In this document: positions 1 through 57,134 of the stretch, one piece after another | How the letters are laid out: each line of letters begins with the position of its first letter | Numbering within the stretch: position 1 is the first letter of the stretch | NCBI GenBank assembly: GCA_046753765.1 | Contig: JBHHUN010000007.1 | Span: 1 to 57,134 of the forward strand | Source of the DNA: Candidatus Dojkabacteria bacterium | GTDB lineage: Bacteria; Patescibacteriota; Dojkabacteria; B142; OLB20 | Length of the DNA stretch: 57,134 nt | Reading direction: 5' to 3' | Program-made: the position numbers and the translations under genes | The notes under the pieces: model-generated | The model's input: only the letters and a program-made list of their open reading frames with translations | What the model was told of the DNA's origin: nothing | The model's database searches: none

Positions 1-207
1 GCATGTCTTTTGACAGCGAGGTCGAAGGCCTCCTCTTCCATGCATAAATTAGCACCTCTTCCGGAAAGCTTCCCACCAGGATCAATAACCACCACACCAT
101 CGGAATTTCGGACAAATCGGACCATCTCGTTTTTAGGCAGCTTTTCTCCAGTCCCAATACAGGTCCGAATTGCGTCCCTGCTTTTTGCTGCAGGTTTACC
201 TTTCATC

Positions 208-30100: not shown

Positions 30101-33100
30101 CTCCAGGTCCATCTCCTGGAACAAACCCTCTCCCAATACCATCTATCAAGGCTCCCGCCCCTAACGTGAAATCACCTGTAAGATGAAAAACTACACCTCT
30201 TCCAACCCTTACGCTATAAGCTGCGTCATAAGCATCCAGATAGTCCTGGTATTCTTGTGTCCCCAATCCGAATGCCCTCGCAATGATTTCGGTATCACCA
30301 AACACATGGTCATAGATTCCGAATTCGTCAATTAGTCCATTGTAGTTAGTAGTATATCCCTGCCCAATCAAAGCATTTGCCCCACTCACGACTGCATTTG
30401 GATAGATAGCTGCCTCCTCGTTGGTTTTTACGCCATTGATGTACCATTTCAACAGCATATTATCTAAATCGCGCACAACAGCGACATGATTCCATTGGTT
30501 TAATGTTAAAGCTGCCTGGGAAACAAACCCTTGATAAGGTGTTGTATCTGCTCCAGAAGTACCGTAGAAGTAGCTAAGTGTTCCATCTAATTCCTGAGTG
30601 ATAGTGCCTTCTCCACCATACGCTTTATTGTAGGGATTCTGCCTTGAGGCAAAGCTTCTAGGATACAACCACATCTCTATTGTCTGGTTGTGTGTCATCT
30701 GAAGGGCAGCAGGATTCCCCAGATCTACAAAACTGTCTACACCATTAAAATCGAGTGCTTTTTGATATTTTCCATCAACAATAACTGCTCCGGAGTTACC
30801 CCCATTATTTGAGTTCACGGAATCACAAACATCGCCGGAAGGTAAACATGTCCCTGCACTCAGTTCATCCATGTGAAGGAATAAGACTGCATTTGGACCT
30901 GCACCCAACTGATGTTCAGCTGGCAGGGGAGGATAGTTAATGCCTGAAGGTAACCCGAGCGGATCAGCCAGTGCTCTGGTTCTTACGTTAGTACCCAAGG
31001 TAAGGTCACGAAATGAGTAATCCGTCGGATCAAAGCTCATGCCATACGCCCCAGCATTGCCACTATTATCTATTATCAATGACCCTCGCTGTTGACCAAC
31101 CTCGAGTCCTTCTGCAACATAAATTGTTCCCGGACCGCCTCTGGTGCCTGATCCCCCGTAAGCCTGAAGTGTTGTACTTGGATCACCAGAAAAGTCATCA
31201 GTTAATCTTGCTTCCAGTGCAATTCTCCCACCTGCACCGCCACCTGCATCTGAGTACCCACCGCCACCATTTGCTCGAATTACTGGTGTTGAGGTTGGAG
31301 TTTTAGTCAACGTGTCTGCACTAATCCAAATACTTCCACCTGCACCACCACCACCCTGTCCACCCCAGGCATTTGAAACCCCGGCAGTCCCGTTTGTGGT
31401 TATTGTTCCATCTATTGTTGCAGTCCCTATCATATGTAACCCTATTGCCCCACCTCCGGTACCTCCCGCTGCTTTGACACCTACTAATCCACTCCCACGA
31501 CCCCCTCCACTACCCAGTTGTATTGGTTCTAAATAACTTCCATACGGACTTCCTGCAGCACCAACTCTTTGTCCACCATATCCACCATGACCTCCGCCAC
31601 CACCTTCTCTGTCTCCTTGCCCCCCACCACCTGGGCCACTTAGTTGACCATATCCTCCTGCATCCGCAGTAACTACTCCTCCACTTTCCAGAGCAAAATT
31701 GTCAAGATTTAAAGTGGGCCCCCGGTTATTTGTTGTATCCCCCACCATTGTTACGACTGATGTTCCACTCACACTTAAATCGCCAAAAGTGAAGTGTCCA
31801 TCTGTTGCCATTGTTGCAGTTGGATAGAGTGTCAGATCTCCATCTGCAGCAAGTGTTAGATCGTTAACATTCTGCCAGGTGCCCTTAATCGTGATTAGTC
31901 CATTTGTAACAGTGGTTGAGGATGCGGTTATTAGAACACCCCCTGGCTCTATGGAAACACCAGCGTCGGTGATCGCTGAGATTGCAGGTGCATTGACAGT
32001 ACCAAAGGTGGCAAGCTGTGAAGTTCCGTCTCCAACCAAGCTTGTACTCCCCGCGAGGTTAACGGTTGATCCCGGATCTGTAAGCTCTAAATCCCCATAT
32101 TCCGTCAGTTGAATTTGCTCAAAGTTGTAGGTTTCTCCGATACCTGATATTCCTGCACTTCTTCCATTTCTACCCGCATTATTCACAATAACCAGTCCCT
32201 CTCCTGGAGTTTGACTTGGTCCTTCATAGTATAGTGTGCCTGCACCGCCGTAGGTACCATTCCCGGTTCTTGCCTGCACTGTTGACAGACTGTCAAAGGT
32301 AAAATCATCAGTAGTGTGAGCATAAAGTGCAATTCTTCCGCCACCTCCCGCTCCTGCGTCAGAGTATCCATTTCCACCATTTGCATTAATAACCGGACCT
32401 GTTCCTCCGGTTTTTGTAAGCACATCTGCGCTTATCCAGATACTTCCTCCTGATCCTCCACCAGATTGTGCCCCGTGCGCATTAGTTGTTCCATTTCCCC
32501 CCACCGCTGTGATCAGCCCGTCTATAGTTACAGTATCTGTAGCAATTATTTTAATTGCTCCCCCTCCGGTTGCTCCAGCCGTTTGTTGATTAACTGATCC
32601 TTTACCTCTTCCCCCACCACTTCCGAGCTGTGTCGGTTGTCCAAAATCCCCATATGGAACACCGCCAGCGCCAATCCGTTGACCGCCATAGCCTCCATAT
32701 CCTCCTCCTCCTCCCTCTTTATCACCCATGTATCCCCGACCTGGTCCCGATTCACTTCCATACCCTCTAACATCCGCTGTAACTACTCCGCCTTCGGCCA
32801 AACTAAAGTTATCTAATAAAAGGCCGGGTCCCTGGTTATTTGCAGTGTCGCCTATAAACGAGATAGTTGATGTTGAGCTCACGGTTACATCTCCAAATGT
32901 GAAGTCGCCGTTCACTGCGCCTGTTGCTGTGGGGTATAGGATAAGATCCCCATCCGCTGCAAGAGTTAAATCAACTATGTCCTGCCAAGTACCTTTGATT
33001 GTTACTTCTGAATTAGTAACTGTAACGGAAGGGGAGGTAATTAATGTTCCCCCGGTTTCTATAAAGACGCCTGCATTTGAAAGGGCATTAACTGGTGGTC

Positions 33101-36100
33101 CATTTATTATTCCATACGTGACGAGTTGGGCTGTTCCATCTCCAGTTAGTCCAGCTGTAGAATTAAGATTTATTGTTGAGTTGGGATCTGTCAGTTCCAA
33201 GTCGCCATAACCAATCAGGTTGATGTTCTCGAAGTCGTATGTTTGAGCTACTCCGCTAATTGCTGCTCTTCTCCCATTTCTTCCTTTGTTATCAACGATA
33301 ACCTTACCCTGACCTGGTATTTGAGATGGTCCCTCGTAGTAAAGAGTTCCAGCACCCCCGTACGTACCGTTTCCACTACGCGCCTCCACAACCGTAGAAG
33401 TATCAATATTCAAATCATCAGTAGTATGGACATAAACTGCGACTCTCCCACCTGCACCTGCTCCTGCATCAGAATACCCATTCCCGCCATTGACAGTTAT
33501 CAATGGAGTACCTGCAGTTGTAGTTAGAATATCTGTTTCTAGCCATATGCTTCCTCCTGCACCACCACCCGACTGCGCACCGTGCGCATTAGTGGTGCCA
33601 TTGTTGCCGATAGCAGTGATTGTGCCATCTATTGTTGCAGTTCCGGCCACAATAAGCTTAATCGCCCCAGCTCCAGTCGCACCACTTGTTTTTTGACCCA
33701 CCAATCCACCGCCTCGTCCTCCACCACTACCGAGCTGAGTTGGCTGTTTGATATCATCATATGGAGCACCTCCTGCTCCAACCCTTTGACCTCCATAACC
33801 ACCGTGACCTCCACCTCCTCCTTCACGATCGCCAAAAGCGCCAGGACCTGGTCCTGATTCGCTTCCAAACCCCCTACCGTCGGCCGAAATTATCCCCCCT
33901 GAATCAATAGTGAGATTGTCGAGATTAAGTCCGACCCCTCTGTTATTAGTCGTATCCCCCAGAAGTGTTACGACCGAAGTAGAGCTTACAGATAAATCAC
34001 CGAACGTAAATTCACCAGCGACTGCCTGGGTCGCAGTTGGGTAAAAAATCATGTCGCCATCCGCAGCCAAAGTGATATCATCAATTCCCTGCCACGTGCC
34101 CCTCCAGGTTACAAGTGAATTAGTTACTGTTACTGCACTCGAGGTTATTAGTATTCCACCGGTTTCAATAAATACACCTGCATTTGTGATTGCATTCAAA
34201 ACAGGCCCGTTCACAGTTCCGTATGTAACCAGTTGGGAGGTTCCGTTTGCATCACCGGTTAAGCCTGCTGCAGATGTCAGGTTGATTGTAGATCCTGGAT
34301 CTGTCAACTCCAGGTGTCCGTAGTTAATCAGGTGAATGTTCTCAAATGTATATGTCTGGTTTAGTCCGCTGATTGCAGCTCTGCCACCGTTTCTTCCCAC
34401 ATTATCAACCCTAACCAATCCCTGCCCCGGTACCTGTGAAGGTCCTTCGTAATAATATGTGCCTGCCCCCCCATACGTACCAGCTCCTGTATATGCTTGA
34501 ATTGTTGTATTTGGATCTGTTGTGAAAGCATCGGTACCGGACGCGTAGATGGCAATACGCCCACCTGCCCCCCCCCCACCTGCACCGCCACCGCTACCGC
34601 CATTTACCCTCACTATCGGAGTTGAACCACCAGTTTTCGTAAGATTTGTGGCTTCAATCCATATTGATCCACCAGAACCACCGCCTGAATTGGCACCGTG
34701 CGCATTCGTCGACCCATTACCCCCATTCGCAGTTATCGTTCCATCAATTGTGGCTGTCCCTGAGACATCGAGTTTAATTGCACCACCGGCAGTTCCTCCA
34801 TTTCTACGTTGATTGAATGAACCATTGCCCCTACCGCCCCCACTCCCAAGCTGGGTCGGCTGGGTTATTGAATCATAAGGCACACCACCTGCTCCGTTGG
34901 TTGTAGCACCATAACCTCCGTGTCCACCACCTCCTCCTCTTTTAGATCCGATAATACCAGGTGACGGTCCGGCCTCGCTACCGTAACCTCTCGTGTCAGC
35001 TGTGACCAAGCCCCCACTGGTCAAAGTGAAATTGTCGAGGCTCAAGGTTACCCCTCTATTGTTGGTAGTGTCCCCAAGAAGGGTTACCACCGAACTGGAG
35101 CCAACGTTGAGATCTCCAAAAGTGAATTCGCCAGCGACCGCCTGTGTTGCAGTTGGATAAAACGTCAGATCTCCGTCTGCAGCTAACGTTATATCGTCGA
35201 TCCCTGACCAGGTCCCCCGCCAGGTAATTAGTGCGTTAGACACAGTCACGGCATTCGCCGCAATCAATGTTCCGCCAGTTTCGATGAATACACCAGAATC
35301 GGTTATGTTAGTTAAACTTGGTCCGTTAACTGTCCCAAATGTAACGAGCTGGGATGTACCATCACCAGTCAATCCAGCGGTAGATGTAATGTTTACAGTT
35401 GAACCAGGATCAGTAAGTTCTAAGTCTCCCTCCCCTGTCAAGTGGATATTTTCAAATGTATAGGTCTGATTTGTACCTGAGATACCAGCCCTTTTACCCA
35501 CTCTACCAACATTATCTACCCTGACCAATCCACTTCCAGACTGCTGGGATGGTCCTTCAATATAGATTGTTCCGGCACCACCATATGACCCTCCCCCAGT
35601 GTAAGCCTCAATTGTAGTGTTTGCGTCTTGTGTAACGTCATCTGTAGTTCTTGCGTAGATCGCTATTCTACCCCCTGCACCAGCACCACCAGAACCACCC
35701 CCACTACCCCCATTAGCCCTGATAATCGTTGTAGCTCCGGGTGTTTTTGTAAGAATATCAGTGTCGATCCAGATCGCACCACCAGACCCTCCACCGGAAT
35801 TGGCTCCGTGTGCATTAGTAGAACCATTCCCTCCTATCGTTGTAATCACACCATCCAGCGTAGCAGAACCCGTAATTTCAAGATGAATCGCACTCCCTCC
35901 AGGTCCACCATTTCTGCGTTGGTTGAATGAACCGTTCCCTCTACCTCCACCGCTTCCCGGTTGCGTAGGCTGTTTTATATCATCATAAGGAACTCCAGAG
36001 GCACCATTTCCCGTTCCCCCATAACCACCGTGTGATGCGCCTCCTCCTCTTTTACTTCCAATAATTCCTCTCCCAGGGCCACTTTCGCTTCCGTATCCGA

Positions 36101-38336
36101 GATAGTTACCGGAAATCGTACTACCGGGATCGAGATCGAGGTTATCCATTAGTATCGTGACTCCGTATTCGGGTCCGACTTCATATGAATCAAGGCTTAA
36201 GATTGCATTGTTGGTGATTGTTATTGTTAAACCACGACAATCGAAAATGCCCTGATTTGTTGCATCAGCGACCCACGTTTGGTTTGCATCGATTATTCCA
36301 TCTGCATCGGGACACGCACCAAGTGAGGTAACAACTGCAATCGCATTCGAAAGAGCACTAACCAGTCCATCTTCACCCTTCACCTTAATGCTGTCTTCAG
36401 TATCGTACTGCATGTTAGAGATGGTTTTTATTCCCGCATCCCCGCCTGTGAAGATTACTGAAGAAGGCGTGAGGCTACCGCCCAGTACGGTTACTCCATC
36501 AAGTGCATCAACTGGTGAGAAATTTATTGTTCCTGTGTAATTAGTCTTAAGGTTGTTGTATTGGTCAAATACCTCGATTGTTACTGTGTCGAAGTTTTGA
36601 TTTATTAGAGCGACATCAGGGGCGTCAATATTAATTCTTGAAAGCACGTCGGGGTTACCACTTGAATAAAAGTCTACTGGGCTTCCATTTAGTCCTGAGC
36701 CACTTGCTCTAACTCTGTTGTTGAGGCTTCCAGCAGTTCTCCCCAGTTTATAGTTATTCTCTGCTATTCCACTGGCATCCGTTACGGAAGTTGCACCGTT
36801 CAGAAGTGTTCCCCCGCTTGCACCGTTAATTACGCTCCAACTAACAACATACCCAGGAATCGCCCCTCCTGAGCTATCTGTGACCTTAACCTTCAAAGGG
36901 TTACCAAGATTCGTAAATACCGTTCCCGACTGACTATCGCCTGAGATCAGTGAGATAGTGTCTGGCTGACCTGTAATTCGAAAATCAGTATCATTTTCTG
37001 TGTTACCACCAAAACTAGCCCAGGCACTATATCCACCATTATTGTCACGTACTCTGGCCTGCCAGTGGTAGTCCTGTAGCCGCGTTAACCCACTCACAAC
37101 GATCTTCCCACAATCTGATGTTGGCGAACTGCACAATTGAGGATTGCTCTGGTTTACAACCTGAGTATGAGTTGGCACTCCTGTAAAAGGAGTACCCAAC
37201 TGTTGTAGCTCTATCTGCATCGCCAACGTGTCGGGCAGGTCAGGGTCAATCATGTCGGTCACAAATACTACTGTTGTTTGTGTAGTCACGTCTCCGACAG
37301 GTATCTCTGTTGTTTCGTTGGATCGGAACTGTTTCAAGATGCTTGGAGTATTCGGTCTACAAGTAGGACCAATCTGGGTTCCAATCCCACCGTTCTGGGA
37401 TCCAATCCCTTGATCAACCTGCACAGTCCCGGAGAAATTATTTAGGGTGTCACAAAGCATCACAAGTCGTCCACCGCCGCCGCCGCCACCGGTGTACGTT
37501 GCCGATGTTGCATCTCCACCATTTGCCGAGACCAACCCAGCACCTGCAAATTCATCAGCTTCGATCCAAATGCTTCCTCCGGCACCACCACCACCCGATG
37601 AGTCTGTCCCAACCTGCCCGGTTTCACCGTCAGCAGTAATTTCGCCATTAATTGTGACTACGCCTGTAGAATCGATTTTTAGTGCACCACCACCTGTACC
37701 TCCAACTCCACCATCTCCACCGCTACCACCAGCACTTCCCAGTGTAACTGGAGCTTCAGTTGATCCATACGCATTTCCTGGAGTACCGGAAGGGTTACTT
37801 CCGTCCTCCGCTCCCTCTCCTCCAGCACCTCCATGTCCACCCCCTGCGCCACCTGTTGTCCCCGCACTGTCTCCTCCGTCTCCACTTGGTGATTCTGCCT
37901 CTCCTGGTAAGTACCCCTTACCCGTGGCATTAATTTTTCCTCCACTTTGGACTGTCAGGTCTTTTACTAACAACGTAACTCCCCAGTCTCCTGCCAGATC
38001 GTCGTTATCAGTAACATTTCTCTCAATTATCACTTCTCCTGTGGCTCCGATAATCAGATCAAGGCTTGCGCAGTTTACGACACCATCAACGTTATCGGGT
38101 GTTACTGTCACCTGGGTACTAATTACAGTAGGTGCAGCGGGAAGTGGGCATACACTCTCAGCGATAATTCTTCTGAATATCTGAAGATAATTTACCCCTG
38201 TAAACAGAACCGCCACTGCAACAAAAGCGAACACAGTAGAATAAATGAAGAGTTCCACACGCCTGAGGCGGCTTGTCAATCTTGGAAGCCTGTTGATTAG
38301 CGAATTGAGATTAATTCGCTTCGAGTCCTTGCTCAT
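27150..38336 (-). CDS. Giant (~3730 aa) Gly-rich repeat cell-surface protein
   Basis: Uninterrupted 11.2-kb ORF. N-terminal TM anchor, Gly-rich units, Ig/FN3-like modules, LamG domain, Pro/Thr linker, C-terminal TMs with two carboxypeptidase-regulatory-like domains. ATG at 38336 preferred over TTG at 38348. Confidence 0.92.
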   Translation of the reverse strand: MSKDSKRINLNSLINRLPRLTSRLRRVELFIYSTVFAFVAVAVLFTGVNYLQIFRRIIAESVCPLPAAPTVISTQVTVTPDNVDGVVNCASLDLIIGATGEVIIERNVTDNDDLAGDWGVTLLVKDLTVQSGGKINATGKGYLPGEAESPSGDGGDSAGTTGGAGGGHGGAGGEGAEDGSNPSGTPGNAYGSTEAPVTLGSAGGSGGDGGVGGTGGGALKIDSTGVVTINGEITADGETGQVGTDSSGGGGAGGSIWIEADEFAGAGLVSANGGDATSATYTGGGGGGGRLVMLCDTLNNFSGTVQVDQGIGSQNGGIGTQIGPTCRPNTPSILKQFRSNETTEIPVGDVTTQTTVVFVTDMIDPDLPDTLAMQIELQQLGTPFTGVPTHTQVVNQSNPQLCSSPTSDCGKIVVSGLTRLQDYHWQARVRDNNGGYSAWASFGGNTENDTDFRITGQPDTISLISGDSQSGTVFTNLGNPLKVKVTDSSGGAIPGYVVSWSVINGASGGTLLNGATSVTDASGIAENNYKLGRTAGSLNNRVRASGSGLNGSPVDFYSSGNPDVLSRINIDAPDVALINQNFDTVTIEVFDQYNNLKTNYTGTINFSPVDALDGVTVLGGSLTPSSVIFTGGDAGIKTISNMQYDTEDSIKVKGEDGLVSALSNAIAVVTSLGACPDADGIIDANQTWVADATNQGIFDCRGLTITITNNAILSLDSYEVGPEYGVTILMDNLDLDPGSTISGNYLGYGSESGPGRGIIGSKRGGGASHGGYGGTGNGASGVPYDDIKQPTQPGSGGGRGNGSFNQRRNGGPGGSAIHLEITGSATLDGVITTIGGNGSTNAHGANSGGGSGGAIWIDTDILTKTPGATTIIRANGGSGGGSGGAGAGGRIAIYARTTDDVTQDANTTIEAYTGGGSYGGAGTIYIEGPSQQSGSGLVRVDNVGRVGKRAGISGTNQTYTFENIHLTGEGDLELTDPGSTVNITSTAGLTGDGTSQLVTFGTVNGPSLTNITDSGVFIETGGTLIAANAVTVSNALITWRGTWSGIDDITLAADGDLTFYPTATQAVAGEFTFGDLNVGSSSVVTLLGDTTNNRGVTLSLDNFTLTSGGLVTADTRGYGSEAGPSPGIIGSKRGGGGGHGGYGATTNGAGGVPYDSITQPTQLGSGGGRGNGSFNQRRNGGTAGGAIKLDVSGTATIDGTITANGGNGSTNAHGANSGGGSGGSIWIEATNLTKTGGSTPIVRVNGGSGGGAGGGGAGGRIAIYASGTDAFTTDPNTTIQAYTGAGTYGGAGTYYYEGPSQVPGQGLVRVDNVGRNGGRAAISGLNQTYTFENIHLINYGHLELTDPGSTINLTSAAGLTGDANGTSQLVTYGTVNGPVLNAITNAGVFIETGGILITSSAVTVTNSLVTWRGTWQGIDDITLAADGDMIFYPTATQAVAGEFTFGDLSVSSTSVVTLLGDTTNNRGVGLNLDNLTIDSGGIISADGRGFGSESGPGPGAFGDREGGGGGHGGYGGQRVGAGGAPYDDIKQPTQLGSGGGRGGGLVGQKTSGATGAGAIKLIVAGTATIDGTITAIGNNGTTNAHGAQSGGGAGGSIWLETDILTTTAGTPLITVNGGNGYSDAGAGAGGRVAVYVHTTDDLNIDTSTVVEARSGNGTYGGAGTLYYEGPSQIPGQGKVIVDNKGRNGRRAAISGVAQTYDFENINLIGYGDLELTDPNSTINLNSTAGLTGDGTAQLVTYGIINGPPVNALSNAGVFIETGGTLITSPSVTVTNSEVTIKGTWQDIVDLTLAADGDLILYPTATGAVNGDFTFGDVTVSSTSTISFIGDTANNQGPGLLLDNFSLAEGGVVTADVRGYGSESGPGRGYMGDKEGGGGGYGGYGGQRIGAGGVPYGDFGQPTQLGSGGGRGKGSVNQQTAGATGGGAIKIIATDTVTIDGLITAVGGNGTTNAHGAQSGGGSGGSIWISADVLTKTGGTGPVINANGGNGYSDAGAGGGGRIALYAHTTDDFTFDSLSTVQARTGNGTYGGAGTLYYEGPSQTPGEGLVIVNNAGRNGRSAGISGIGETYNFEQIQLTEYGDLELTDPGSTVNLAGSTSLVGDGTSQLATFGTVNAPAISAITDAGVSIEPGGVLITASSTTVTNGLITIKGTWQNVNDLTLAADGDLTLYPTATMATDGHFTFGDLSVSGTSVVTMVGDTTNNRGPTLNLDNFALESGGVVTADAGGYGQLSGPGGGGQGDREGGGGGHGGYGGQRVGAAGSPYGSYLEPIQLGSGGGRGSGLVGVKAAGGTGGGAIGLHMIGTATIDGTITTNGTAGVSNAWGGQGGGGAGGSIWISADTLTKTPTSTPVIRANGGGGYSDAGGGAGGRIALEARLTDDFSGDPSTTLQAYGGSGTRGGPGTIYVAEGLEVGQQRGSLIIDNSGNAGAYGMSFDPTDYSFRDLTLGTNVRTRALADPLGLPSGINYPPLPAEHQLGAGPNAVLFLHMDELSAGTCLPSGDVCDSVNSNNGGNSGAVIVDGKYQKALDFNGVDSFVDLGNPAALQMTHNQTIEMWLYPRSFASRQNPYNKAYGGEGTITQELDGTLSYFYGTSGADTTPYQGFVSQAALTLNQWNHVAVVRDLDNMLLKWYINGVKTNEEAAIYPNAVVSGANALIGQGYTTNYNGLIDEFGIYDHVFGDTEIIARAFGLGTQEYQDYLDAYDAAYSVRVGRGVVFHLTGDFTLGAGALIDGIGRGFVPGDGPGAGRRGNTNSGGGGGGHGGTGGNGEDDGNGEGQAGDFYGSQREPLSIGSGGGASGPGTSGGKGGGAVAIRARRGNVDLFGTIDVSGTDGLTASPGGGGGAGGSVLIEGETCDISGDITAEGGDGGDEVFDGGGGGGGRVSILTTLGPCDVTGVVSVAQGASPGGQTGQVGTYPSVGTIPSTPTFRDQYKSDASTIIPVGGRTQEQEVVLKASMSDPGGTALTPIDLQAVFEVVLVNESFTGAQVHIGEIVAKDPSPDEGVLGITTGPIQSYTGGAAIIAQATIPALTPGESYKWRARVVNSTEGITSDWVEFGNNGSNAADFIVSTVDSLTIGVSSTSVNAGDPLTLTVTALDSFAVQDPTYTGTVTFASTSGTAVLPVNYIFNGGDAGQHVFTDELTFTEGGTYTVTVTDTINAALTATTPDITVTGPPPATPTPTPTDPGVTPTVPPGEDCSANPNTAYCQQGVDITDVVVNETDETTVEICWNTNIPTVGSIDYGLGSVGVYTDTTDIETTYSLSHCDTITDLEEAEGYLFRIIAESNAGRQGEHTDAFTTPGGELPTTEALECISVEEDDIAFNNQAQVIVNYSTAGIANCKLHYGHNEDDLPFSSASDPGVTNHTGIVELDNLDGTNDAIYNIVCNVLINDEPTDCEANGVIPVSAYRRYFPRRTTPEADILRQLALAAIPAALLFATTATIALDIFAYPRFVLFALGWIKDRKKYKTWGIVFDGTTREAIPFATVRLYSGGVFIKERVTDLNGKYGMPIDQGTYRLEVEHPDYGRFKKEIKITEKDSSVAEDVEMTIRGGNAKVRTDLRHRIRTTLLSFNTYLVYIGFVTAVIITVIAPVIFNFVIVGLYIVQFVVLKLIEGWNKRNWGYIYDTKSGSRVKGGFIRLFDIKESRQVDVQMSDDRGRYGFSPKPGQYHLSSDAPGFKFPSSQMKKGTLFRSPAGQVFAKVDARSGKAIDLALPLDPTGKGKSRVASPFG
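31110..36170 (-). repeat. Five tandem ~370-aa coding repeats inside the giant gene
   Basis: The Gly of the G[YF]G motif begins at 36098, 34988, 33872, 32765 and 31655 (periods 1110, 1116, 1107, 1110 nt). The fifth unit is partial. Boundaries approximate. Confidence 0.92.
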
Positions 38337-38427
38337 ATAACTAAACAACGAGTTGACATAAATATAGCAATATTGAAATTCGAGGGCAATGAACTTTCGA
38401 GCTATTTAGGGGACAAATCGAGATAGA

Positions 38428-50211: not shown

Positions 50212-50320
50212 CAGCGGTTACATATTTAAACGCAACTTCTACACAAGTATCATGAAACTTGCAAAATAGCCCATATTCCTTGATACTGTGATTTGTGCTA
50301 GACTTTAGTAGGTATTGCAC

Positions 50321-51823
50321 ATGATATATACTGCCGAGGTACAACTTGATAAAAACAAAGAGCGATTTAAGCTCCGAAAGAGGAGGTTTTTCTTTGTTCT
50401 ACTGACGTTATTACTACCACTTGCACTCGGCTTCATATTTGCAAACCTTGAGTTACAGACATCCGCAACCTCAACAATCTCTGATGAACCGCAGAACCCC
50501 TCCCTACTCGGACAGGTTTCAAACCTCCTTCAAAAAGCGCCCGAGGTGATCGGCGAGATATGGCAGACCGAGTTTAAACACGACAACAAGATTACGTCCG
50601 CCCTGATAGTAGGAATAGACTCACGAAATGTAATCTTTAATGGGATAGAATTTATAAACACAAAGCCCGAAGGTCAGGCTGGCACAAGAAACACAGACAC
50701 AATACTCCAGGCTGTTTATGATCATGACACAGGTAGAGCCTTCTTGATTTCGATTCCAAGAGACATTGGTGTCGATGTCTCCATGTCCTGCCTTGAGTTT
50801 CATGGGAGTATACATTGGGTTTATGACAAGGCGCAAAGCGCCGGTTGTAAGGGCGGTGGACAGAGAGTGCTTGCTAAAACTGTTGAACGGATTACAGGAA
50901 TCAAGATCCAGTACTATGGATTTGTTACCCTCGATGCGTTTAAAGAGGTCATTGATATTGTCGGAGAGGAGAACGAAAATGGTGAAAAAGGTATATGGGT
51001 CAACAACCCAGCAGCTTTCTATGAAATCTACCCATACAACGATCACGGCTGGGAAAATGTGTATTTCGCACAAGGACGACAATTCATGACCGCCGAGAGG
51101 GCCCTTAGATTTGTGAGAAGTCGACAGTTCACATCAGATTGGGGACGTGCTAGACGCCAGCAGATATTTATCGAGGCAGTGAAGGACAGGGTACTTTCAG
51201 CAGAAACGTTGTTAAACCCAGGAAAAATTCTCGGGCTGATGGGGACATTCAAAGACAAGTTATTGTTTACTCCACCAAGTTTCTCAGAGGTAGTCGAAGG
51301 TATTAAACTGGCACAAAATCTTGACCAAACAGAGATCACAAATATTGTGTTAAGTCCTGACTTCGGTGGTTATGAGGTATTCTTAAACAAACAACCCCAT
51401 GACAGACCGGGCGGCCCCTACTATATGGTTCCCACAAGTTGGGCCAAATGTCCGAATAATGTGTACTGTAAGGTTCAGGAGTTCATAAGACAGATAATGC
51501 AATATCCAAGTATTTTCGAAGAGGAGGCTAAGATATTTGCTTATGCGAAAGAGTATGGAGCTAGTGGACCTAATTTTGAGAATGTAAACTATGAACAAAT
51601 AAAAGCAGCAAATTTACCTATTGGTGTGGCTGAGAGCAGATACCTAGCTGGCGCGGTAAACCCAAAGCAGGATGTGATGATTATTGATTATACAAATGGA
51701 AAGAAAAAATTCACTCTCAATGCACTTGAGAAACTGCTTGGTGTCAAAGCTGTCTCAGGCGATGCTTACCCCAGTGTCAGAATTAACGACGAGCATATCT
51801 CCATCGTCGTAAAGCCAACCTAG
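50321..51823 (+). CDS. LCP (LytR-CpsA-Psr) family glycopolymer transferase
   Basis: TM, IVGIDSR, RNTDTI, ISIPRD, ALRFVRSR..SDWGRARRQQ. Confidence 0.9.
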   Translation: MIYTAEVQLDKNKERFKLRKRRFFFVLLTLLLPLALGFIFANLELQTSATSTISDEPQNPSLLGQVSNLLQKAPEVIGEIWQTEFKHDNKITSALIVGIDSRNVIFNGIEFINTKPEGQAGTRNTDTILQAVYDHDTGRAFLISIPRDIGVDVSMSCLEFHGSIHWVYDKAQSAGCKGGGQRVLAKTVERITGIKIQYYGFVTLDAFKEVIDIVGEENENGEKGIWVNNPAAFYEIYPYNDHGWENVYFAQGRQFMTAERALRFVRSRQFTSDWGRARRQQIFIEAVKDRVLSAETLLNPGKILGLMGTFKDKLLFTPPSFSEVVEGIKLAQNLDQTEITNIVLSPDFGGYEVFLNKQPHDRPGGPYYMVPTSWAKCPNNVYCKVQEFIRQIMQYPSIFEEEAKIFAYAKEYGASGPNFENVNYEQIKAANLPIGVAESRYLAGAVNPKQDVMIIDYTNGKKKFTLNALEKLLGVKAVSGDAYPSVRINDEHISIVVKPT

Positions 51824-52099: not shown

Positions 52100-52563
52100 T
52101 TAACACAAATTACACCAATTTACTTGCAGGACATTGAGATATGCTGCTCCATCTTGAAAGATACAAACCCCATCTTCTCCAAGATCATCAGTTCGGATTT
52201 CTAGTTTTCCATTGTTTTTTTCGCAATAAACAGAGGCAGGGTTTGCCATATCAGAAGCATCTCCATTACTGCAATCCTGTGGACACGTTGCTTTTGTCTC
52301 ACCACATAAATCTTCGCACACATCATCCGGTAGATCGTTGCCGTTTAAGCCCTCCGTAAATGTTTTCCTCCCGGGACTGCGCATTGCCTCGAATATGACT
52401 CCACGACCAGATATCCAGCGACTTCACACTCCGTAAACGAATTTATTTGACCCGCTTTATCCCTCTCAACGTAAACATAGGTACCCAGTCCGGCTATAGC
52501 TGAAGCAAAAAGTATGGAGCATACAAGCAGGACCCCCATTAAAATTAGTAGCTTTTTATCCAT
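52100..52563 (-). pseudogene. Frameshifted secreted Cys-rich protein with DUF333 domain
   Basis: The 5' ORF (TM, INSFTECEVAGY..ESYSRQC) and the 3' ORF (KTFTE...CPQDC...MANPASVYCEK...GVCIFQDG) join if one A is added to the A4 run at 52363-66. The DUF333 tail is atypical. Confidence 0.65.
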
Positions 52564-52618: not shown

Positions 52619-52942
52619 CTATTTTTCAAAAACGAACATCAATCCCTGTTTATTGATCGAAAGCCTTTCTTTTTTCATGGTGAGTCCACTTTTTTCTGCA
52701 AAATCAACAATCTCTTGACGAGTGAAGAAGTGCGCAATAGGTGTGAGTATTTGATCACTAAAGATATTCCATGCAACTTCCCTGGGCACCTTCTCTTTAC
52801 TCTTGAAATACAAGCGGTTACCCAGTTGGACATAGCCCAACTTAAAAAGGGGGAACAGTATTGTCTTTATCACCTGCCTACCGAATTTGAATCTGTATGC
52901 CCACCTAATTAAAAAACTGATATGGATTTGAGTAAAGACCAT
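52619..52942 (-). pseudogene. Possible C-terminal fragment of a class I SAM methyltransferase
   Basis: FSDQILTPIAHFFTRQEIVDF resembles methyltransferase C-termini; no GxGxG SAM motif; only ~40 nt separate it from the divergent radical SAM gene. Confidence 0.4.
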
Positions 52943-52982: not shown

Positions 52983-54035
52983 ATGATTAAACGATTAAAG
53001 TTCCACCAGAAGGCCCTGCTTTCTGGTCTAAAAGACACCAAACCTTATAAACTCAATTTCGCTGTCACTTACAGATGCAATCACCGCTGTCTAAATTGCA
53101 ACATCTGGCAGAAAAAGATAGTTGATGAGCTCACAACTGATGAGATTAAAAAATTCTTTCAGAAGTATCAGTTCAGTTGGATCAACCTTACTGGCGGAGA
53201 GATCGTGCTGCGCCCGGATATCGAGGATATACTGGATATTGTAAATAAGTACAACAAAGATCTATATGTATTAAGTCTCACAAGCAACGCTCTTTCGTAC
53301 ACAAGACTCATAAAAATAACGGAGAAGATCAGCAGGATGAATGTCCCTTATACTATGGCAACCATCAGTCTTGACGGCGTCTCTGAGATGCACAATAAGG
53401 TCAGGGGGCTCCCGAATGCATTTAAACATACCATGCTTGCGATCGAAGGAATCAAAGACATCCCCGGAATCCAATTCCAGATCGGATATACAATCTACCA
53501 GGAAAACGTTGGCAAGCTTAAAGGTTTTGTAAGGCATATGGAGAAAAACTATGAGTGGTTTGATGTGAACAAGATGCACGTTAATACAATGAATCTGAGT
53601 GGGCACTACTACTCTAACAAGGGTCTAAAAATCGCAGAAGACTATAACGAAAAGGCGCGCACGGATATCCGGTATTTTATGTCACGTTTCAAAAAAGACA
53701 TGAGTTATGCAGGTGTTGCCGAAAGAGCCTACCAAAAGCTCAATGCCAAGTTCCAGAAAACAGGCGTCACACCACTCCCCTGCAAAGCGCTTTCTGCCTC
53801 TGTATTTCTTGATCCTAACGGGTTTATTTATCCCTGTATAATCTGGACAAATAAACTAGGGAATCTCAGGAATTTTGACTACGATCTGAATAAAATCTAC
53901 GAAACAGATGAATATAAAGGACTGCGTGAGCTTATCAAACAAAAAAAGTGCCCCAACTGCTGGACATCGTGTGAGGCAACTCAAACGATGCTTGGGAACC
54001 TCATGAATCCTCACTTTTTTATGAATATCTTCTAG
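52983..54035 (+). CDS. Radical SAM protein with SPASM/twitch-like C-terminal Cys cluster
   Basis: CNHRCLNC, TGGE, SLDG, C...PNGFIYPC...CPNCWTSC. Confidence 0.92.
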   Translation: MIKRLKFHQKALLSGLKDTKPYKLNFAVTYRCNHRCLNCNIWQKKIVDELTTDEIKKFFQKYQFSWINLTGGEIVLRPDIEDILDIVNKYNKDLYVLSLTSNALSYTRLIKITEKISRMNVPYTMATISLDGVSEMHNKVRGLPNAFKHTMLAIEGIKDIPGIQFQIGYTIYQENVGKLKGFVRHMEKNYEWFDVNKMHVNTMNLSGHYYSNKGLKIAEDYNEKARTDIRYFMSRFKKDMSYAGVAERAYQKLNAKFQKTGVTPLPCKALSASVFLDPNGFIYPCIIWTNKLGNLRNFDYDLNKIYETDEYKGLRELIKQKKCPNCWTSCEATQTMLGNLMNPHFFMNIF

Positions 54036-54056
54036 TTTGAACTCGAAGCAAATAGC

Positions 54057-55757
54057 ATGATATCTGAGAAACTAATAATGGGAATATGGGATGGGCACGA
54101 TGCAGGAGTTGCATTTATTTCCGGCAATAAGGTTCTTTTTGCAGCAAATGAGGAACGTTTCAGTAGACTGAAGTTGGACGTCAGTTTCCCCCACCTTGCT
54201 ATTCGAGCTGGTCTGGACTATCTAAAAATTGAACCTCAAGAAATTAAAACTGTGGCTTTCTCAACTACAGATCCGGCAAAGACGTTAACCCGTGTGTTTC
54301 CAGCAACAAAAAAACGATACTATGCTATTCGACGAAAAAAGACAGCTCCCGGGAAACTGACGGGCATAAGTAGATGGTTGAAGTACTTTTTGACTGAGCT
54401 AAAACCTAATATGCTTAGTCGGAAGATTTCCAGATCCAACGTACTCGGGAATCTGAGAAAAAGTGCCATTAACCCCGAAAAACTACTCGCATTCGACCAT
54501 CACTGGTGTCACATGACTGGAGCTTATGCAACATCGGGCTTTGATGACGCGCTCATCGTCTCCCTGGATGGGATAGGTGACGGACTATCAGGTCTCGTGG
54601 TCTCTGTTAAAGATGGCGACTTCAAAACGCTTCACAAACAAAGCGGAAAACACTCGTTAGGGATTTTTTTTGAGCATGTGACCAACCTACTTAATATGCG
54701 TGAGCTAGAAGACGAAGGAAAAGTTATGGCTCTAGCAGATTTCTCATATGCAATAGAGGATAGTAAAAACCCACTGATTTCATTGTTTTCGATGACAGAT
54801 GGAGAGTTGAAAGCAAAATTCAACTCCAGAAAGATGTATTCACAGCTCAAGCGTGAGCTTTGGAGGTATCCACTGGAGCAATTTGCCTATTTGGCCCAGA
54901 GAGCACTCGAGTACCACGTGATAGGTTACATCAAGTTCTGGCTTGGAAGATCTGCTCAAAATAAGGTCGTTTTTACAGGTGGAATCGCTGCAAATATCAA
55001 GTTGAACAGTAAGATTCTAAAGCTTGACCAGGTTGAGGATATGTACGTTTTCCCTCATATGGGTGACGGGGGGCTGGCACTTGGGGCGGCGGCGGCGGCA
55101 AACCAAAAATTACACAAAGAAATGAACCTGGACCTGCATAACGCATTTTTAGGACCAGATTACTCTAACTTCAAAATTAAAACTCTACTAGAAAAACACA
55201 AATTAAAGTCACATCGTGTAAATCCAGCCAGGTCAGCTGCACAACATGTGGCTCGAGGGAGCATTGTGTTATGGTATCAGGGTAGAATGGAATATGGTCC
55301 CCGTGCTCTTGGACATAGGTCAATATTGGCCCTCCCCGGAAGAAAAGAAATCAAAGACCAGTTGAATCTAAAGATAAAGAAACGTGTATGGTACCAGCCT
55401 TTCTGCCCATCCATGCTCAGTGAAGATGCACAAAAGATACTACAGAGTGTCAAAGGGACACCAAACGAATACATGACCATGGGTTACTGGGTTCGCAAAA
55501 AGTATCTCGAAGAAATGTATGGTGTTGCAAATATCGATGGGTCCTGTCGCCCTCAGATAGTTTATAAACACAATAAAATCTATTATGACTTCCTAGTGGA
55601 ACTCAAACAGCTCACCGGGCTTGGGGTCGTCTTAAACACAAGTCTCAATTTACACGGAGACCCTATCGTTGCCAATCCAAAAGATGCAATCGAAATGTTT
55701 GCAAAAAGCGATGTCAACTACTTATATATCGGAAATCAGCTGATAACTAAAAGATGA
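54057..55757 (+). CDS. Carbamoyltransferase (NodU/CmcH/TobZ family)
   Basis: GHDA, ANEERFSR.K, DHHWCH, DGIGD, EGKVMALA, GRMEYGPRALGHRSILA, LNTSLN. Confidence 0.94.
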   Translation: MISEKLIMGIWDGHDAGVAFISGNKVLFAANEERFSRLKLDVSFPHLAIRAGLDYLKIEPQEIKTVAFSTTDPAKTLTRVFPATKKRYYAIRRKKTAPGKLTGISRWLKYFLTELKPNMLSRKISRSNVLGNLRKSAINPEKLLAFDHHWCHMTGAYATSGFDDALIVSLDGIGDGLSGLVVSVKDGDFKTLHKQSGKHSLGIFFEHVTNLLNMRELEDEGKVMALADFSYAIEDSKNPLISLFSMTDGELKAKFNSRKMYSQLKRELWRYPLEQFAYLAQRALEYHVIGYIKFWLGRSAQNKVVFTGGIAANIKLNSKILKLDQVEDMYVFPHMGDGGLALGAAAAANQKLHKEMNLDLHNAFLGPDYSNFKIKTLLEKHKLKSHRVNPARSAAQHVARGSIVLWYQGRMEYGPRALGHRSILALPGRKEIKDQLNLKIKKRVWYQPFCPSMLSEDAQKILQSVKGTPNEYMTMGYWVRKKYLEEMYGVANIDGSCRPQIVYKHNKIYYDFLVELKQLTGLGVVLNTSLNLHGDPIVANPKDAIEMFAKSDVNYLYIGNQLITKR

Positions 55758-56455
55758 CAAAACAAAAAGACAGTCAAAACTTAAAAGTGGGGGTGGTCAT
55801 TTGTACTTTAAACGAGGAGAGGTCGATTACAGAACTTGTAAAAGCAAGCCTTAAGTACGCTGACGAGGTGTGTATTGTTGATGGACACTCAACAGACAAG
55901 ACTGTTTCAAGAGCACGCAAGGCTGGGGCAGTTGTCCTGTTTGAAGACGATAAGGGTAAGGGAGGAGCTATAAGGACTGCAGTAAGGCAAAAAGATTATG
56001 ATATATTTGTATTTATGGACGCAGACCTTTCTCACGACCCCACAGACATTCCCTTGTTAGTCTCACCTATCCTAAAGGGTCAAGCTGACCTCGTCACGGG
56101 TTCCAGATTACTTGGGGGTTCTGACGAACTTCACGGAACATTCGATGAGTTTCTCAGACTTTCCGGATCAGCTTTCATTACATTCTGTATAAACCGGAGA
56201 TTCGGAGTAAGTATCAGCGATAGCCAAAACGGATTTAGAGCAGGGAGAGGTAAGATGCTCAAAGACCTGGATCTTAGAGAAAACAGTACCACAATCGAAC
56301 AGGAGATGATCATGAAGGCTCTAAAAAAAGGTTACGTCCTCACTGAGGTTCCGGCACACGAATACAGGAGGAAATTCGGAGAATCAAGGATATCCCTCAC
56401 CCGTCAAAGCTTTCGTTATATTTATTCTATGATTAAATATCTATTGCTGCCATGA
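55754..56455 (+). CDS. GT2 glycosyltransferase (polyprenol-phosphate sugar synthase-like)
   Basis: TLNEE, VDGHSTD, GKGGA, DADLSHDP, GSR, SDSQNGFRA; ATGA overlaps at both ends. Confidence 0.92.
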   Translation: MTKQKDSQNLKVGVVICTLNEERSITELVKASLKYADEVCIVDGHSTDKTVSRARKAGAVVLFEDDKGKGGAIRTAVRQKDYDIFVFMDADLSHDPTDIPLLVSPILKGQADLVTGSRLLGGSDELHGTFDEFLRLSGSAFITFCINRRFGVSISDSQNGFRAGRGKMLKDLDLRENSTTIEQEMIMKALKKGYVLTEVPAHEYRRKFGESRISLTRQSFRYIYSMIKYLLLP

Positions 56456-57134
56456 GCTCTGCATTAGAATTTACACGAAACGTCCAGCCGTATTTTTTTT
56501 ACGTTGCCGTTATATTAATTGTTCTGATTCTCGCAAAGAACGCAGAGTTTATTAAGCACAGTCTGCGGAAGTACATGACGCTTAAAAAACTGCTGGTACT
56601 GCTTGGTGCTGCGGTTATTCTCACGTTTTTTGTTACCAACACAGCCCCTAGGACACGGCGAATACTCTACGATGAAAGTATCTATGTCAATAACGCCCAG
56701 AATATAAGCAAACTCGGAAAAAATCAGTACTGTGTCTCGGGGTCATTTGAGGAGGGGAGGTACAGCTGTTCCGACAGTATTATCAATAAGCAGCCCCCCG
56801 GATACCCCTCAACGCTATCGCTTTTTTTCCAGATATTTCAGCCCAGTTGGGAGAACGCCAATCTGTTTAATAACGTCATATTGCTGATCAATATCCTCTT
56901 GGTCTTCCTTGCGGTTCTCATCGTTACAAACCAAATCAAAGTAGCAGCTATCTCATCAGTCATTTTTGCACTAACTCCTGTAATAGCAAATTGGCACAAT
57001 ACTGCAGCGGTCGAGCCGGTCGGTTCAATGTACGCAGGACTTACTTTGCTTGCCTTTCTCATATTTTATCGTAGTAAGCGATACGGTTTCTATCTCCTGG
57101 GTTGGATTCTTTTTGCATTGGCAACTGCAACAAG
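56452..57134 (+). CDS. GT-C fold (ArnT/PMT-like) membrane glycosyltransferase, 3' end outside the window
   Basis: Open from ATG 56452 to the window end (no stop, so absent from the ORF track): TMs, LYDESIY, KQPPGYP. Confidence 0.8.
   Translation, partial: MSSALEFTRNVQPYFFYVAVILIVLILAKNAEFIKHSLRKYMTLKKLLVLLGAAVILTFFVTNTAPRTRRILYDESIYVNNAQNISKLGKNQYCVSGSFEEGRYSCSDSIINKQPPGYPSTLSLFFQIFQPSWENANLFNNVILLINILLVFLAVLIVTNQIKVAAISSVIFALTPVIANWHNTAAVEPVGSMYAGLTLLAFLIFYRSKRYGFYLLGWILFALATAT

Follow-up and report, generated by a model that had tools for sequence, protein, structure and literature searches.

What could a radical S-adenosylmethionine (SAM) enzyme, a carbamoyltransferase, and two glycosyltransferases accomplish together in a bacterium of the Candidatus Dojkabacteria? 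The stretch of DNA that raises this question (the window, 57,134 nucleotides (nt) long) is the whole of contig C7 of one genome of this group (G000; 1.26 Mb in 69 contigs, 94% complete). Its last four genes encode, in order, a radical SAM enzyme (rSAM), an O-carbamoyltransferase (CT), a family 2 glycosyltransferase (GT2), and a membrane-embedded glycosyltransferase of the GT-C fold (Table 1). A first-pass annotation had described the four genes as co-oriented, with ATGA overlaps joining the last three, and had proposed an uncharacterized route that builds a carbamoylated, radical-modified sugar and attaches it to surface proteins or lipids. The open reading frames (ORFs), the Pfam matches, and a direct reading of the start/stop overlaps (55754-55757 for CT/GT2 and 56452-56455 for GT2/GT-C) bear out this layout; the rSAM and CT genes are spaced by 21 nt, and no terminator-like site was found on the plus strand inside the cassette. 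We conclude, with a probability of roughly 0.6, that the four genes form one functional, horizontally acquired module for extracytoplasmic glycosylation by way of a lipid carrier. Of the route first proposed, the lipid-carrier core is upheld by the co-conservation of the genes and by the families of their products, while roles for a giant protein and for LytR-CpsA-Psr (LCP) and PF00953 genes elsewhere in the window are not.

The window ends within the fourth gene. The contig's final 55 nt (57080-57134) recur exactly as the start of contig C22, the sole partner for that end, and the GT-C frame stays open across the join to position 1025 of C22, giving a protein of 550 amino acids (aa). The junction is flanked by residues that are invariant in the family (D74-E75 on one side; W286-G287 and F354-S358, the motif FYAGS354-358, on the other), the completed protein aligns end to end with its nearest ortholog (42% identity; locus L004 of genome G040), and the gene order across the junction is kept in the complete sister genome G092. 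Given the unique overlap, the open frame, the end-to-end alignment, the invariant motifs, and this synteny, we take the join as sound. The match to PMT_2 (PF13231; cut-off 26.1 bits) is 27 bits for the part within the window and 44.2 bits at full length. Exact overlaps of contig ends were seen for 16 contig pairs of the assembly, so that many of its 69 contigs can probably be joined.

Conservation of the four gene families

Local iterated hidden Markov models of the four families were searched in 85 loci anchored on rSAM, up to about 10 kb to either side where the contig allowed; a scan of one genome per species yielded more than 555 relatives. All four families occur in 25 of the 85 loci, from the Acidobacteriota, Ignavibacteriota, Verrucomicrobiota, Saganbacteria, the candidate phyla radiation (CPR), and the DPANN archaea. 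At least one partner is present in 74 loci (CT in 41, GT2 in 50, and GT-C in 54), and the 11 in which rSAM stands alone within 10 kb include several on short contigs. The four closest rSAM homologues that were looked up (36-47% identical) all lie with the full set of families, each in a different order; their sources are two bacterial contigs, one CPR-like and one of the Verrucomicrobiae, an Ignavibacteria metagenome-assembled genome (MAG), and an archaeal contig on which TBP and MCM genes adjoin. When CT served as the anchor, the cassette-type CT was found in 6 of 101 genomes of one Acidobacteriota order, and of three further loci anchored in this way, two contain the full set and the third contains CT with GT-C. 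The cassette-linked CTs form a single clade (34 sequences, support 100/100), distinct from other CT paralogues, including the second CT copy of G000 itself.

At least seven gene orders are represented. The order in this window is rSAM-CT-GT2-GTC; the Acidobacteriota and Ignavibacteriales have rSAM-GT2-CT-GTC, the G040 locus has CT-GT2-GTC-GTC-rSAM, Saganbacteria and two unclassified archaeal MAGs have GT2-rSAM-GTC-CT-GTC, the Woesearchaeota have CT-GTC-rSAM, and divergent and convergent arrangements occur in the Verrucomicrobiota and Micrarchaeota. In the Micrarchaeota often only rSAM and CT are present, side by side and with a GT4 after them, and loci devoid of CT often contain two or three paralogous rSAMs and a GT-C. 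A second GT-C type is encoded in nine loci; apart from it, no further gene family shared across phyla was found in 37 CT-containing loci.

The joint recurrence of these four families in other phyla takes the gene set beyond chance, and their co-conservation in loci anchored on either rSAM or CT, along with the CT clade, indicates that the four genes are a functional unit. The co-conservation on which the first-pass annotation had staked its proposal thus extends across bacterial and archaeal phyla, with the order shuffled. Nor does any of the enzymes fall into a characterized pathway outside glycan metabolism: CT is TobZ-like (1e-58), GT2 resembles dolichyl-phosphate-mannose synthase (DPMS) and ArnC, and GT-C has the GT-C fold. 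That the four genes belong to separate pathways and are neighbors by accident is strongly disfavored. GT2 and GT-C genes are indeed common, and there are the loci in which rSAM has no partner, but the four families occur together in those seven or more orders, in distant phyla and in both prokaryotic domains. Moreover, CT genes of any kind are rare (7 of 151 genomes of the class) yet lie within 10 kb of rSAM in nearly half of the loci (41 of 85), the cassette has a CT clade of its own, the genes overlap translationally in G000, and all four were inserted there together.

Two further gene arrangements were observed around members of the rSAM family. A CARDB-like protein of about 265 aa (Table 1), with a signal sequence, the conserved motif Y(H/S)DAN.YPFS, and a C-terminal transmembrane anchor, is encoded in six cassette loci of archaea and Saganbacteria; its gene is located just upstream of GT2 in most of the six, and the protein may be an accessory component or a target. 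Distant rSAM members (31-36% identical; loci L008, L009, L015, L016, L029, L047, and L051) occur as two or three rSAM/SPASM paralogues in a row, which adjoin a heptosyltransferase-type GT9 (L008, L009) and/or a GT-C. These loci are a related but different glycan-tailoring cassette.

Acquisition of the cassette

Within the class (151 genomes), only G040, a member of another family, has a close CT ortholog (58% identity); the cassette-type CT is present in none of the 15 genomes from the same family as G000. In G092, the LCP gene (its product 49% identical to that of G000) is followed, after a gap of about 0.85 kb, by the genes for Thr-rich proteins, a membrane protein, folD, and a DUF2298 protein. 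The same flanks lie about 6.3 kb apart in G000 (51824 to C22:1035), with three small minus-strand ORFs and the four-gene cassette between them. The cassette was acquired horizontally by this Dojkabacteria lineage as an insert of about 6.3 kb, and the module is horizontally mobile. The composition of the insert gives no sign of foreign origin (42-43% GC, against about 44% for the window). In the CT tree, for which only midpoint rooting was available, the CTs of the G000 cassette and of G040 nest among bacterial sequences from the Verrucomicrobiota, Acidobacteriota, and Ignavibacteriota, with the archaeal branch outside.

The LCP gene and a WecA/TagO gene had also been noted in the window. Both genes are present, the latter as a member of the MraY/WecA family (PF00953) that may be either WecA or MraY, but we reject them as pathway members: the LCP gene only borders the insertion, as its conserved left flank, and does not occur in cassette neighborhoods of other phyla, the PF00953 gene is 50 kb away, and neither recurs in other cassette loci.

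The glycosyltransferases and the proposed route

GT2 consists of a catalytic domain only (Glycos_transf_2, PF00535, 81 bits) and has no transmembrane segment. Its top NCBIfam matches are polyprenyl-phosphate sugar synthases (AglJ, dolichyl-phosphate (Dol-P)-hexose transferase, PpgS, and ArnC), all below their cut-offs; the AglJ, Dol-P-hexose transferase, and PpgS equivalogs are not reached (124, 72, and 62 bits against 325, 375, and 370, respectively). In the PDB, residues 8-228 align with the Dol-P-mannose synthase of P. furiosus (5mlz, 1.3e-15) and with ArnC (2e-10), and the aligned region includes DADLSHDP at residue 89, which conforms to the motif DADLxHxP. GT2 accordingly has the features of a polyprenyl-phosphate glycosyltransferase of the DPM1/GtrB/ArnC/PpgS/AglJ type, with a GT-A fold and the DAD...H.P signature.

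GT-C has about 11 transmembrane segments by Kyte-Doolittle hydropathy; rSAM and CT, like GT2, have none. The invariant D74-E75 pair lies in the first extracytoplasmic loop, and the signature of the family further includes two conserved loop cysteines, NKQPxGYP, and FYAGSYxYGADVRYS. Its structure was predicted on the 42%-identical L004 ortholog rather than on the joined 550-aa protein (predicted local distance difference test (pLDDT) score of 85). In Foldseek searches the ortholog model has a GT-C fold, with PglB, STT3, DPY19, ALG9, and ArnT at TM-scores of 0.47-0.55. The polytopic topology, acidic loop motif, fold, and profile score are those of the PMT_2 family of GT-C enzymes. Features of a GT39 protein O-mannosyltransferase (PMT) proper are lacking, as Pfam finds no MIR domain and no PDB sequence matches at E<=1; the ortholog model aligns with Pmt4 at a Foldseek E-value of 3.7e-3 and a TM-score of 0.45.

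In the route that we propose, whose step order, sugar, radical chemistry, flippase, and acceptor we infer, the soluble GT2, working on the inner face of the membrane, would load polyprenyl phosphate with a sugar taken from a nucleoside diphosphate (NDP)-sugar. The TobZ-type CT would O-carbamoylate the sugar via carbamoyl-AMP in the cytoplasm, either before or after the GT2 step, and the twitch/SPASM rSAM would abstract hydrogen from the same sugar, likewise in the cytoplasm; oxidation, epimerization, or decarboxylation would all have precedents. A flippase would move the tailored polyprenyl-phosphate sugar across the membrane, and GT-C, with its 11 transmembrane segments, would pass the sugar to an acceptor outside. 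G000 encodes GalU-like, ManC-like, and archaeal-GlmU-like nucleotidyltransferases, and UDP-Glc, GDP-Man, and UDP-GlcNAc-type donors are therefore plausible; no cassette gene specifies which donor sugar is used.

The carbamoyltransferase and the supply of carbamoyl phosphate

CT matches Carbam_trans_N (PF02543, 108.6 bits) and Carbam_trans_C (PF16861, 187 bits), with both scores well over the cut-offs, and combines a Kae1-like N-terminal with a YrdC-like C-terminal domain. It aligns with TobZ (1.4e-58), including HxxxH (H148-H152; HHWCH148-152), GPRALG, and GRMEYGPRALGHRS, and with this metal site and adenylation domain it is a class III O-carbamoyltransferase of the TobZ/NodU/CmcH type; the NodU equivalog NF041651 is not reached (116 bits against a cut-off of 1000). 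Characterized class III CTs (TobZ, NodU, NolO, and CmcH; PDB 3VEN) O-carbamoylate sugars, as in tobramycin and Nod-factor GlcNAc, by way of a carbamoyl-AMP intermediate made from carbamoyl phosphate and ATP (PMC9633730). Among the cassette CTs, 144 positions are at least 90% conserved. The second CT of G000 (locus L092) is 33% identical to the cassette CT and is encoded beside a GDSL-family hydrolase gene. It falls in a different clade, with Gottesmanbacteria and Geobacterales sequences, and is likewise without a detectable source of carbamoyl phosphate.

Carbamoyl phosphate, a labile compound (half-life at 37 °C, about 5 min), is supplied by carbamoyl-phosphate synthetase (CPSase), carbamate kinase-type enzymes, and catabolic transcarbamylases (PMC6022934). 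In G000, the carbamate kinase model (arcC, TIGR00746) gave no match, the ornithine/aspartate transcarbamylase (OTC/ATC) superfamily model (TIGR00658, which also detects ATCase-type enzymes) gave none at E<=1e-3, and the CPSase model (carB, TIGR01369) gave only a 22-bit ATP-grasp match; all 14 control genomes respond to each of the three models. The lack of an ATCase-type match also suggests that G000 has no de novo pyrimidine synthesis. The first-pass annotation had asked where a CPR cell obtains carbamoyl phosphate; G000, although 94% complete and with two CT genes, shows none of the known sources.

The carB and arcC models, and these two alone, were also run on 37 other genomes with rSAM and CT in one locus. 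A strong carB match was obtained in 15 (14 larger bacterial genomes and one Micrarchaeote), arcC alone in seven (three Ignavibacteria and four Micrarchaeota), and neither in the other 15. These source-less genomes comprise 14 small ones (0.5-1.2 Mb) and one fragmentary 4.4-Mb MAG, and the small ones are 12 DPANN archaeal MAGs, a Gottesmanbacteria (CPR) MAG (G029), and a 1.2-Mb MAG labelled Pseudomonadales (G034). As G029 and G034 carry the other CT clade, 12 small source-less genomes with the cassette-type CT are left, or 13 including G000. Single absences among the 37 genomes carry little weight; the pattern, and the completeness of G000, are meaningful.

Of the 144 positions conserved to at least 90% in genomes with a source, the CTs of the source-less genomes retain 120. 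Since they retain all of the YrdC-like core motifs, they do not look degenerate or re-purposed, and no systematic divergence of their adenylation domain was found. Due to the lability of carbamoyl phosphate and the lack of CPSase or carbamate kinase in these small genomes, the donor must be either scavenged, made by an unrecognized route, or unneeded by this CT clade. HypF, a relative of CT, makes carbamate from carbamoyl phosphate and then adenylates the carbamate (PMC9633730). Direct use of carbamate (CO2 + NH3) by the cassette CT clade is for this reason chemically conceivable, and scavenging from a host may be the alternative. The YrdC/TsaC relatives of CT activate bicarbonate-derived carboxyl groups. 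It is improbable, in our estimate, that CPR bacteria, DPANN archaea, and several free-living phyla all place a carbamoylated, radical-remodeled sugar on Thr-rich surface proteins with a CT that is independent of endogenous carbamoyl phosphate. If they did, a CT adenylating free carbamate would constitute a new O-carbamoylation route, and a host-derived donor would constitute a new metabolic dependency for an episymbiont.

The radical SAM enzyme

The rSAM ORF matches Radical_SAM (PF04055, 43.5 bits; cut-off 29.5) and SPASM (PF13186, 26 bits; cut-off 21.5). Its CX3CX2C motif (C32/C36/C39) and the G71, G72, and E73 of the GGE SAM-binding motif are invariant in 36 family members, and with these motifs and the PF04055 score the protein belongs to the radical SAM superfamily. 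The C-terminal region has five cysteines, arranged as C267-X12-G-X4-C285 ... C323-X2-C326-X3-C330. A full SPASM domain with two auxiliary clusters has a seven-cysteine motif, CX9-15GX4C ... CX2CX5CX3C ... C, of which the first half is present here and the second is shortened. By its cysteine pattern, the domain fits a one-cluster (twitch-like) or partial SPASM; the Cys...Cys...CxxC spacing presumably resembles the four-cysteine twitch site of BtrN. None of the named rSAM equivalogs (TIGR04053, PTO1314, NirJ, AhbD, MftC, sactisynthases, viperin, HpnH) is reached, all 39 matches being far below cut-off and the best, TIGR04053, scoring 69.7 bits against 395. The unnamed family comprises 2,635 representatives (50%-identity clusters) at E<=1e-30.

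Alignment of the family shows W327 and E331 to be invariant; T328 and C330 are almost so, and these residues form a W-T-x-C-E motif. A subclade (P0038, P0040, P0043, P0051, P0064, P0071, and P0074) is devoid of four of the five C-terminal cysteines, so that the auxiliary cluster is dispensable for some members of the family. The same subclade retains C330-E331 within W-T-x-C-E, with one exception, suggesting that C330 is catalytic rather than purely cluster-binding.

An AlphaFold2 model of rSAM (pLDDT 95) resembles SkfB, BlsE, anSME, MoaA, and DesII in Foldseek (TM-scores of about 0.6), and also SuiB, at 12-18% identity. Among these structural and profile neighbors, SkfB, anSME, and SuiB are peptide maturases, and BlsE, DesII, and MoaA are enzymes of sugars or nucleotides, so that the set is mixed. 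Could rSAM then be an anSME- or sactisynthase-like maturase, acting on the Cys-rich neighbors of the cassette or on another polypeptide and only traveling with the other three genes? The closest PDB entries by profile and by Foldseek E-value are SkfB, CteB, anSME, and SuiB, SPASM enzymes typically act on peptides, and the two proteins encoded downstream of the cassette are rich in cysteine (14 and 38 Cys). The top TM-scores, however, belong to the sugar-acting BlsE (0.64/0.68). The two hallmarks of maturases of RiPPs (peptides made on ribosomes and modified after translation), a RiPP recognition element (RRE) and an adjacent precursor gene, are both missing: the protein has no RRE or leader-binding domain, its core beginning at about residue 20 with one N-terminal helix in the model, and the neighborhood clusters contain no conserved small precursor ORF. 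Nor is any Cys-rich gene conserved across the 85 loci, in which the constant partners are GT2, GT-C, and CT, and in the Micrarchaeota rSAM forms its tight pair with CT, next to a GT4. The Cys-rich neighbors are exported, and their cysteines most likely form extracellular disulfides. The near-invariant residues of rSAM are mostly polar (K23, R77, D79, N102, D131, R141, N175, H199, N201, N212, and E331), and together with the missing RRE they would fit a phospho-sugar substrate better than a peptide. We consider a role as a polypeptide maturase very unlikely.

Candidate acceptors

The two genes that converge on GT-C encode paralogous Thr-rich surface proteins. Anchored at the N-terminus (AVYxGxQLSQ), both contain Cys-rich domains, a linker of Thr/Pro or Thr/Gln, and a DUF11-like domain, and in each a C-terminal TPGTALISDEADR motif precedes a transmembrane segment. 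In G040, a 374-aa protein of analogous architecture is encoded immediately upstream of CT on the same strand; it has the sequence YIGWRLSQ and a region rich in Cys, as well as poly-Thr, TTPGTTIP repeats, and an LPPTG that precedes a transmembrane segment and a basic tail. Ser/Thr-rich neighbors are found in 5 of the 41 CT-containing loci versus none of the 44 without CT, and Thr-rich PKD/BACON lipoproteins recur near the cassettes of Acidobacteriota. The leading candidates for the acceptor are, in our view, stretches rich in Thr and Pro within membrane-anchored surface proteins, the two encoded downstream being examples; to this tentative assignment we give slightly less than even odds. A giant protein encoded in the window, described earlier as Ser/Thr-rich and as a possible acceptor, is instead rich in Gly (18%) and has no Ser/Thr low-complexity tract (16 Ser/Thr per 40 residues in its best window); we discard it, and the two downstream proteins are better candidates.

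Several findings weigh against the reading of the four genes as a glycosylation module with such acceptors. Only about 12% of the CT-containing loci have a Ser/Thr-rich neighbor, and the 374-aa protein of G040 shows no significant BLASTP match to the Thr-rich proteins of G000 (E=0.06). Of the 15 same-family genomes, which all lack the cassette, 14 encode the Thr-rich protein family, and G000 itself has at least five members of it (looser relatives in Table 1), so that the adjacency of this family could be an accident of the insertion. The Foldseek results for the GT-C ortholog model do not separate enzymes with protein acceptors from those with lipid acceptors. Across the neighborhood clusters of the 37 CT-containing loci, no NDP-sugar-modifying gene is conserved with the cassette; no dedicated flippase (GtrA, ArnE/F, or Wzx-like) is conserved there either, in a search of the cassette loci only and not of the rest of the genome. 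To these are added the missing source of carbamoyl phosphate in G000, the lack of CPSase and carbamate kinase in the other small genomes with the cassette-type CT described above, and the peptide maturases among the closest matches of rSAM. The Thr-rich family occurs in 34 of the 151 genomes of the class, and, with its relatives elsewhere in G000 and in cassette-less genomes, we reject it as specific to the cassette. The exact N-terminal motif YxGxxLSQ is unique to two cassette neighbors.

The same machinery could also serve a non-protein acceptor, with GT-C decorating a membrane lipid, a lipoglycan, or a cell-wall polymer. Such GT-C enzymes include ArnT (lipid A), YfhO/CsbB (teichoic acids), and Rv3779 (arabinogalactan), and ArnT gives the top TM-score for the ortholog model (0.54/0.55). 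About 88% of the CT-containing loci have no Ser/Thr-rich protein nearby, the cassette occurs in diderm bacteria, CPR bacteria, and archaea, whose surface proteins are very different, sister genomes have the Thr-rich family and no cassette, and an LCP gene flanks the insert, though it is not conserved with the cassette elsewhere. Set against this, Thr-rich proteins abut the cassette in both of its carriers in the Dojkabacteria class, in arrangements that differ, and Ser/Thr-rich neighbors were seen only at loci with CT. The lowest Foldseek E-values are to the oligosaccharyltransferase/PglB group of protein-glycosylating enzymes (STT3, PglB, and DPY19). Furthermore, as archaea and CPR bacteria have no lipid A to our knowledge, no single shared lipid acceptor is obvious. 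We judge a non-protein acceptor to be unlikely, and retain the surface proteins as candidates for the glycosylation module.

Other genes of the region

The inserted segment to the left of the cassette contains three small ORFs (Table 1). The 72-aa ORF overlaps the DUF333 gene, and the C-terminus of the 107-aa ORF gives the impression of a class I methyltransferase tail; this ORF may be a remnant carried in with the cassette. Beyond the Thr-rich genes, C22 encodes a polytopic membrane protein that is conserved in two sister genomes (34-36% identity); its assignment as an O-antigen ligase is unsupported, as it has no Pfam match. The DUF2298 protein is syntenic in sister genomes, and the FAD amine-oxidase-family protein encoded directly beside it has no match in the sister regions compared.

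Table 1. Coordinates of the genes and proteins discussed. Plain numbers are positions in the window; those with a prefix refer to other contigs of G000 (C) or to other loci (L).
Feature	Coordinates	Strand	Description
rSAM enzyme	52983-54035	+	350 aa; PF04055 + PF13186
O-carbamoyltransferase (CT)	54057-55757	+	566 aa; Carbam_trans_N + Carbam_trans_C
GT2	55754-56455	+	233 aa; Glycos_transf_2
GT-C	56452-57134, rest on C22 bases 56-1025	+	PMT_2; N-terminal 227 of 550 aa in the window
LCP gene	50315-51823	+	PF03816, 89 bits
PF00953 gene	2254-3441		MraY/WecA family; about 50 kb from the cassette
Giant protein	27150-38348		Gly-rich
Left part of inserted segment	51824-52982		Small ORFs on the minus strand
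DUF333 protein	52100-52384	-	94 aa, 46.8 bits; in the inserted segment, 5' of the cassette
72-aa ORF	within 52100-52563	-	N-terminal hydrophobic segment
107-aa ORF	52619-52942	-	No family match; inside the inserted segment
Thr-rich surface protein	C22:1036-2442	-	Convergent with GT-C, 11 nt past the GT-C stop
Thr-rich surface protein	C22:2504-4078	-	Convergent with GT-C
Polytopic membrane protein	C22:4094-5674	-	526 aa; beside the Thr-rich genes
DUF2298 membrane protein	C22:6462-8462	-	666 aa, 311 bits
FAD amine-oxidase-family protein	C22:8469-9785	-	438 aa
Second CT	C16:1273-3021	+	582 aa
Looser relatives of the Thr-rich proteins	C6:45068-46000, C42:4425-6897, C5:21297-23867		
CARDB-like protein of other cassette loci	L010:8513-9304, L011:761-1576, L014:7843-8637, L018:2682-3494, L071:8459-9274, L028:7570-8229		About 265 aa

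Comparison with known systems

Full-text searches found no description of the four-gene combination, and in a 2026 review of carbamate-bearing carbohydrates the words glycoprotein, polysaccharide, and archaea do not occur. We know of no experimental work on the surface decoration of CPR bacteria and DPANN archaea, whose cells live attached to hosts and whose surface proteins are likely contact points. The cassette offers a portable entry point common to bacteria and archaea, which joins the logic of lipid carriers and GT-C enzymes to two unusual tailoring enzymes. The predicted product would be detectable as a carbamoyl sugar (+43 Da) with a further radical modification, and the unnamed rSAM family, with its roughly 2,600 clusters, gains a testable context.

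Each of the tailoring enzymes has characterized relatives. TobZ, NodU, NolO, and CmcH share with the cassette CTs the two-domain architecture and the conserved metal and adenylation motifs; the cassette CTs differ in being a separate clade, in being tied to genes for lipid-carrier glycosylation and not to clusters for secondary metabolites or Nod factors, and in occurring also in genomes with no known source of carbamoyl phosphate. The sugar-acting twitch/SPASM enzymes BlsE (PDB 7VOB), BtrN, and DesII (8HZV) likewise combine an rSAM core with a Cys-rich auxiliary domain and have no RRE, whereas the rSAM described here is only 12-17% identical to them and has its own near-invariant W-T-x-C-E motif.

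The glycosyltransferase pair is similar to that of actinobacterial and eukaryotic O-mannosylation (Ppm1/DPM1 and PMT, GT39), in which a GT2 of the Dol-P- or polyprenyl-phosphate-mannose type serves a GT-C of the PMT family (PF13231/PF02366). The PMTs and the cassette GT-C both have an Asp-Glu motif in the first extracytoplasmic loop, and the targets of the PMTs are Thr/Pro-rich secreted proteins. Unlike the PMTs, the cassette GT-C is devoid of MIR domains, has no significant sequence match to a solved PMT, and has a signature of its own; moreover, we know of no carbamoylated, radical-modified sugar among PMT donors. In streptococci, Ser/Thr-rich regions are O-glycosylated by GtrB and PgtC2, or in S. 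mutans by PgfS, PgfE, PgfM1, and PgfM2, and the target genes can adjoin the glycosylation genes (bioRxiv 10.1101/2024.05.05.592596; PMC5856776). Thr/Pro-rich anchored proteins similarly abut the cassette, here as putative acceptors. In contrast to the Pgf system, the cassette has no epimerase, its GT2 scores weakly on the PgfS model (29 bits against 500), and the CT and rSAM steps have no counterpart.

A further parallel in layout is the Arn pathway (ArnC/ArnD/ArnE-F/ArnT), which places 4-amino-4-deoxy-L-arabinose on lipid A in the Enterobacteria. There too a GT2 loads undecaprenyl phosphate, a GT-C transfers the sugar outside the membrane, and an enzyme at the cytoplasmic face edits a small C-N substituent, which is a formyl group in the Arn pathway and would be a carbamoyl group in the cassette. 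The likeness extends to sequence (GT2 against ArnC, 2e-10) and to structure (the GT-C ortholog model against ArnT, TM-score 0.54). The cassette differs in that it has no homologues of ArnA, ArnB, or ArnD and no ArnE/F flippase, its GT2 is without the transmembrane helices of ArnC, CT and rSAM take the place of the formyltransferase and deformylase, and its CPR and archaeal carriers are without lipid A. It also departs from the three-component GtrA/B/C, Arn, and Pgf systems in having no dedicated flippase gene with GT2 and GT-C. By analogy, the module would work like the Arn, Gtr, and Pgf lipid-carrier systems, with the addition of two tailoring enzymes that are absent from them, a TobZ-type CT and a twitch/SPASM rSAM.

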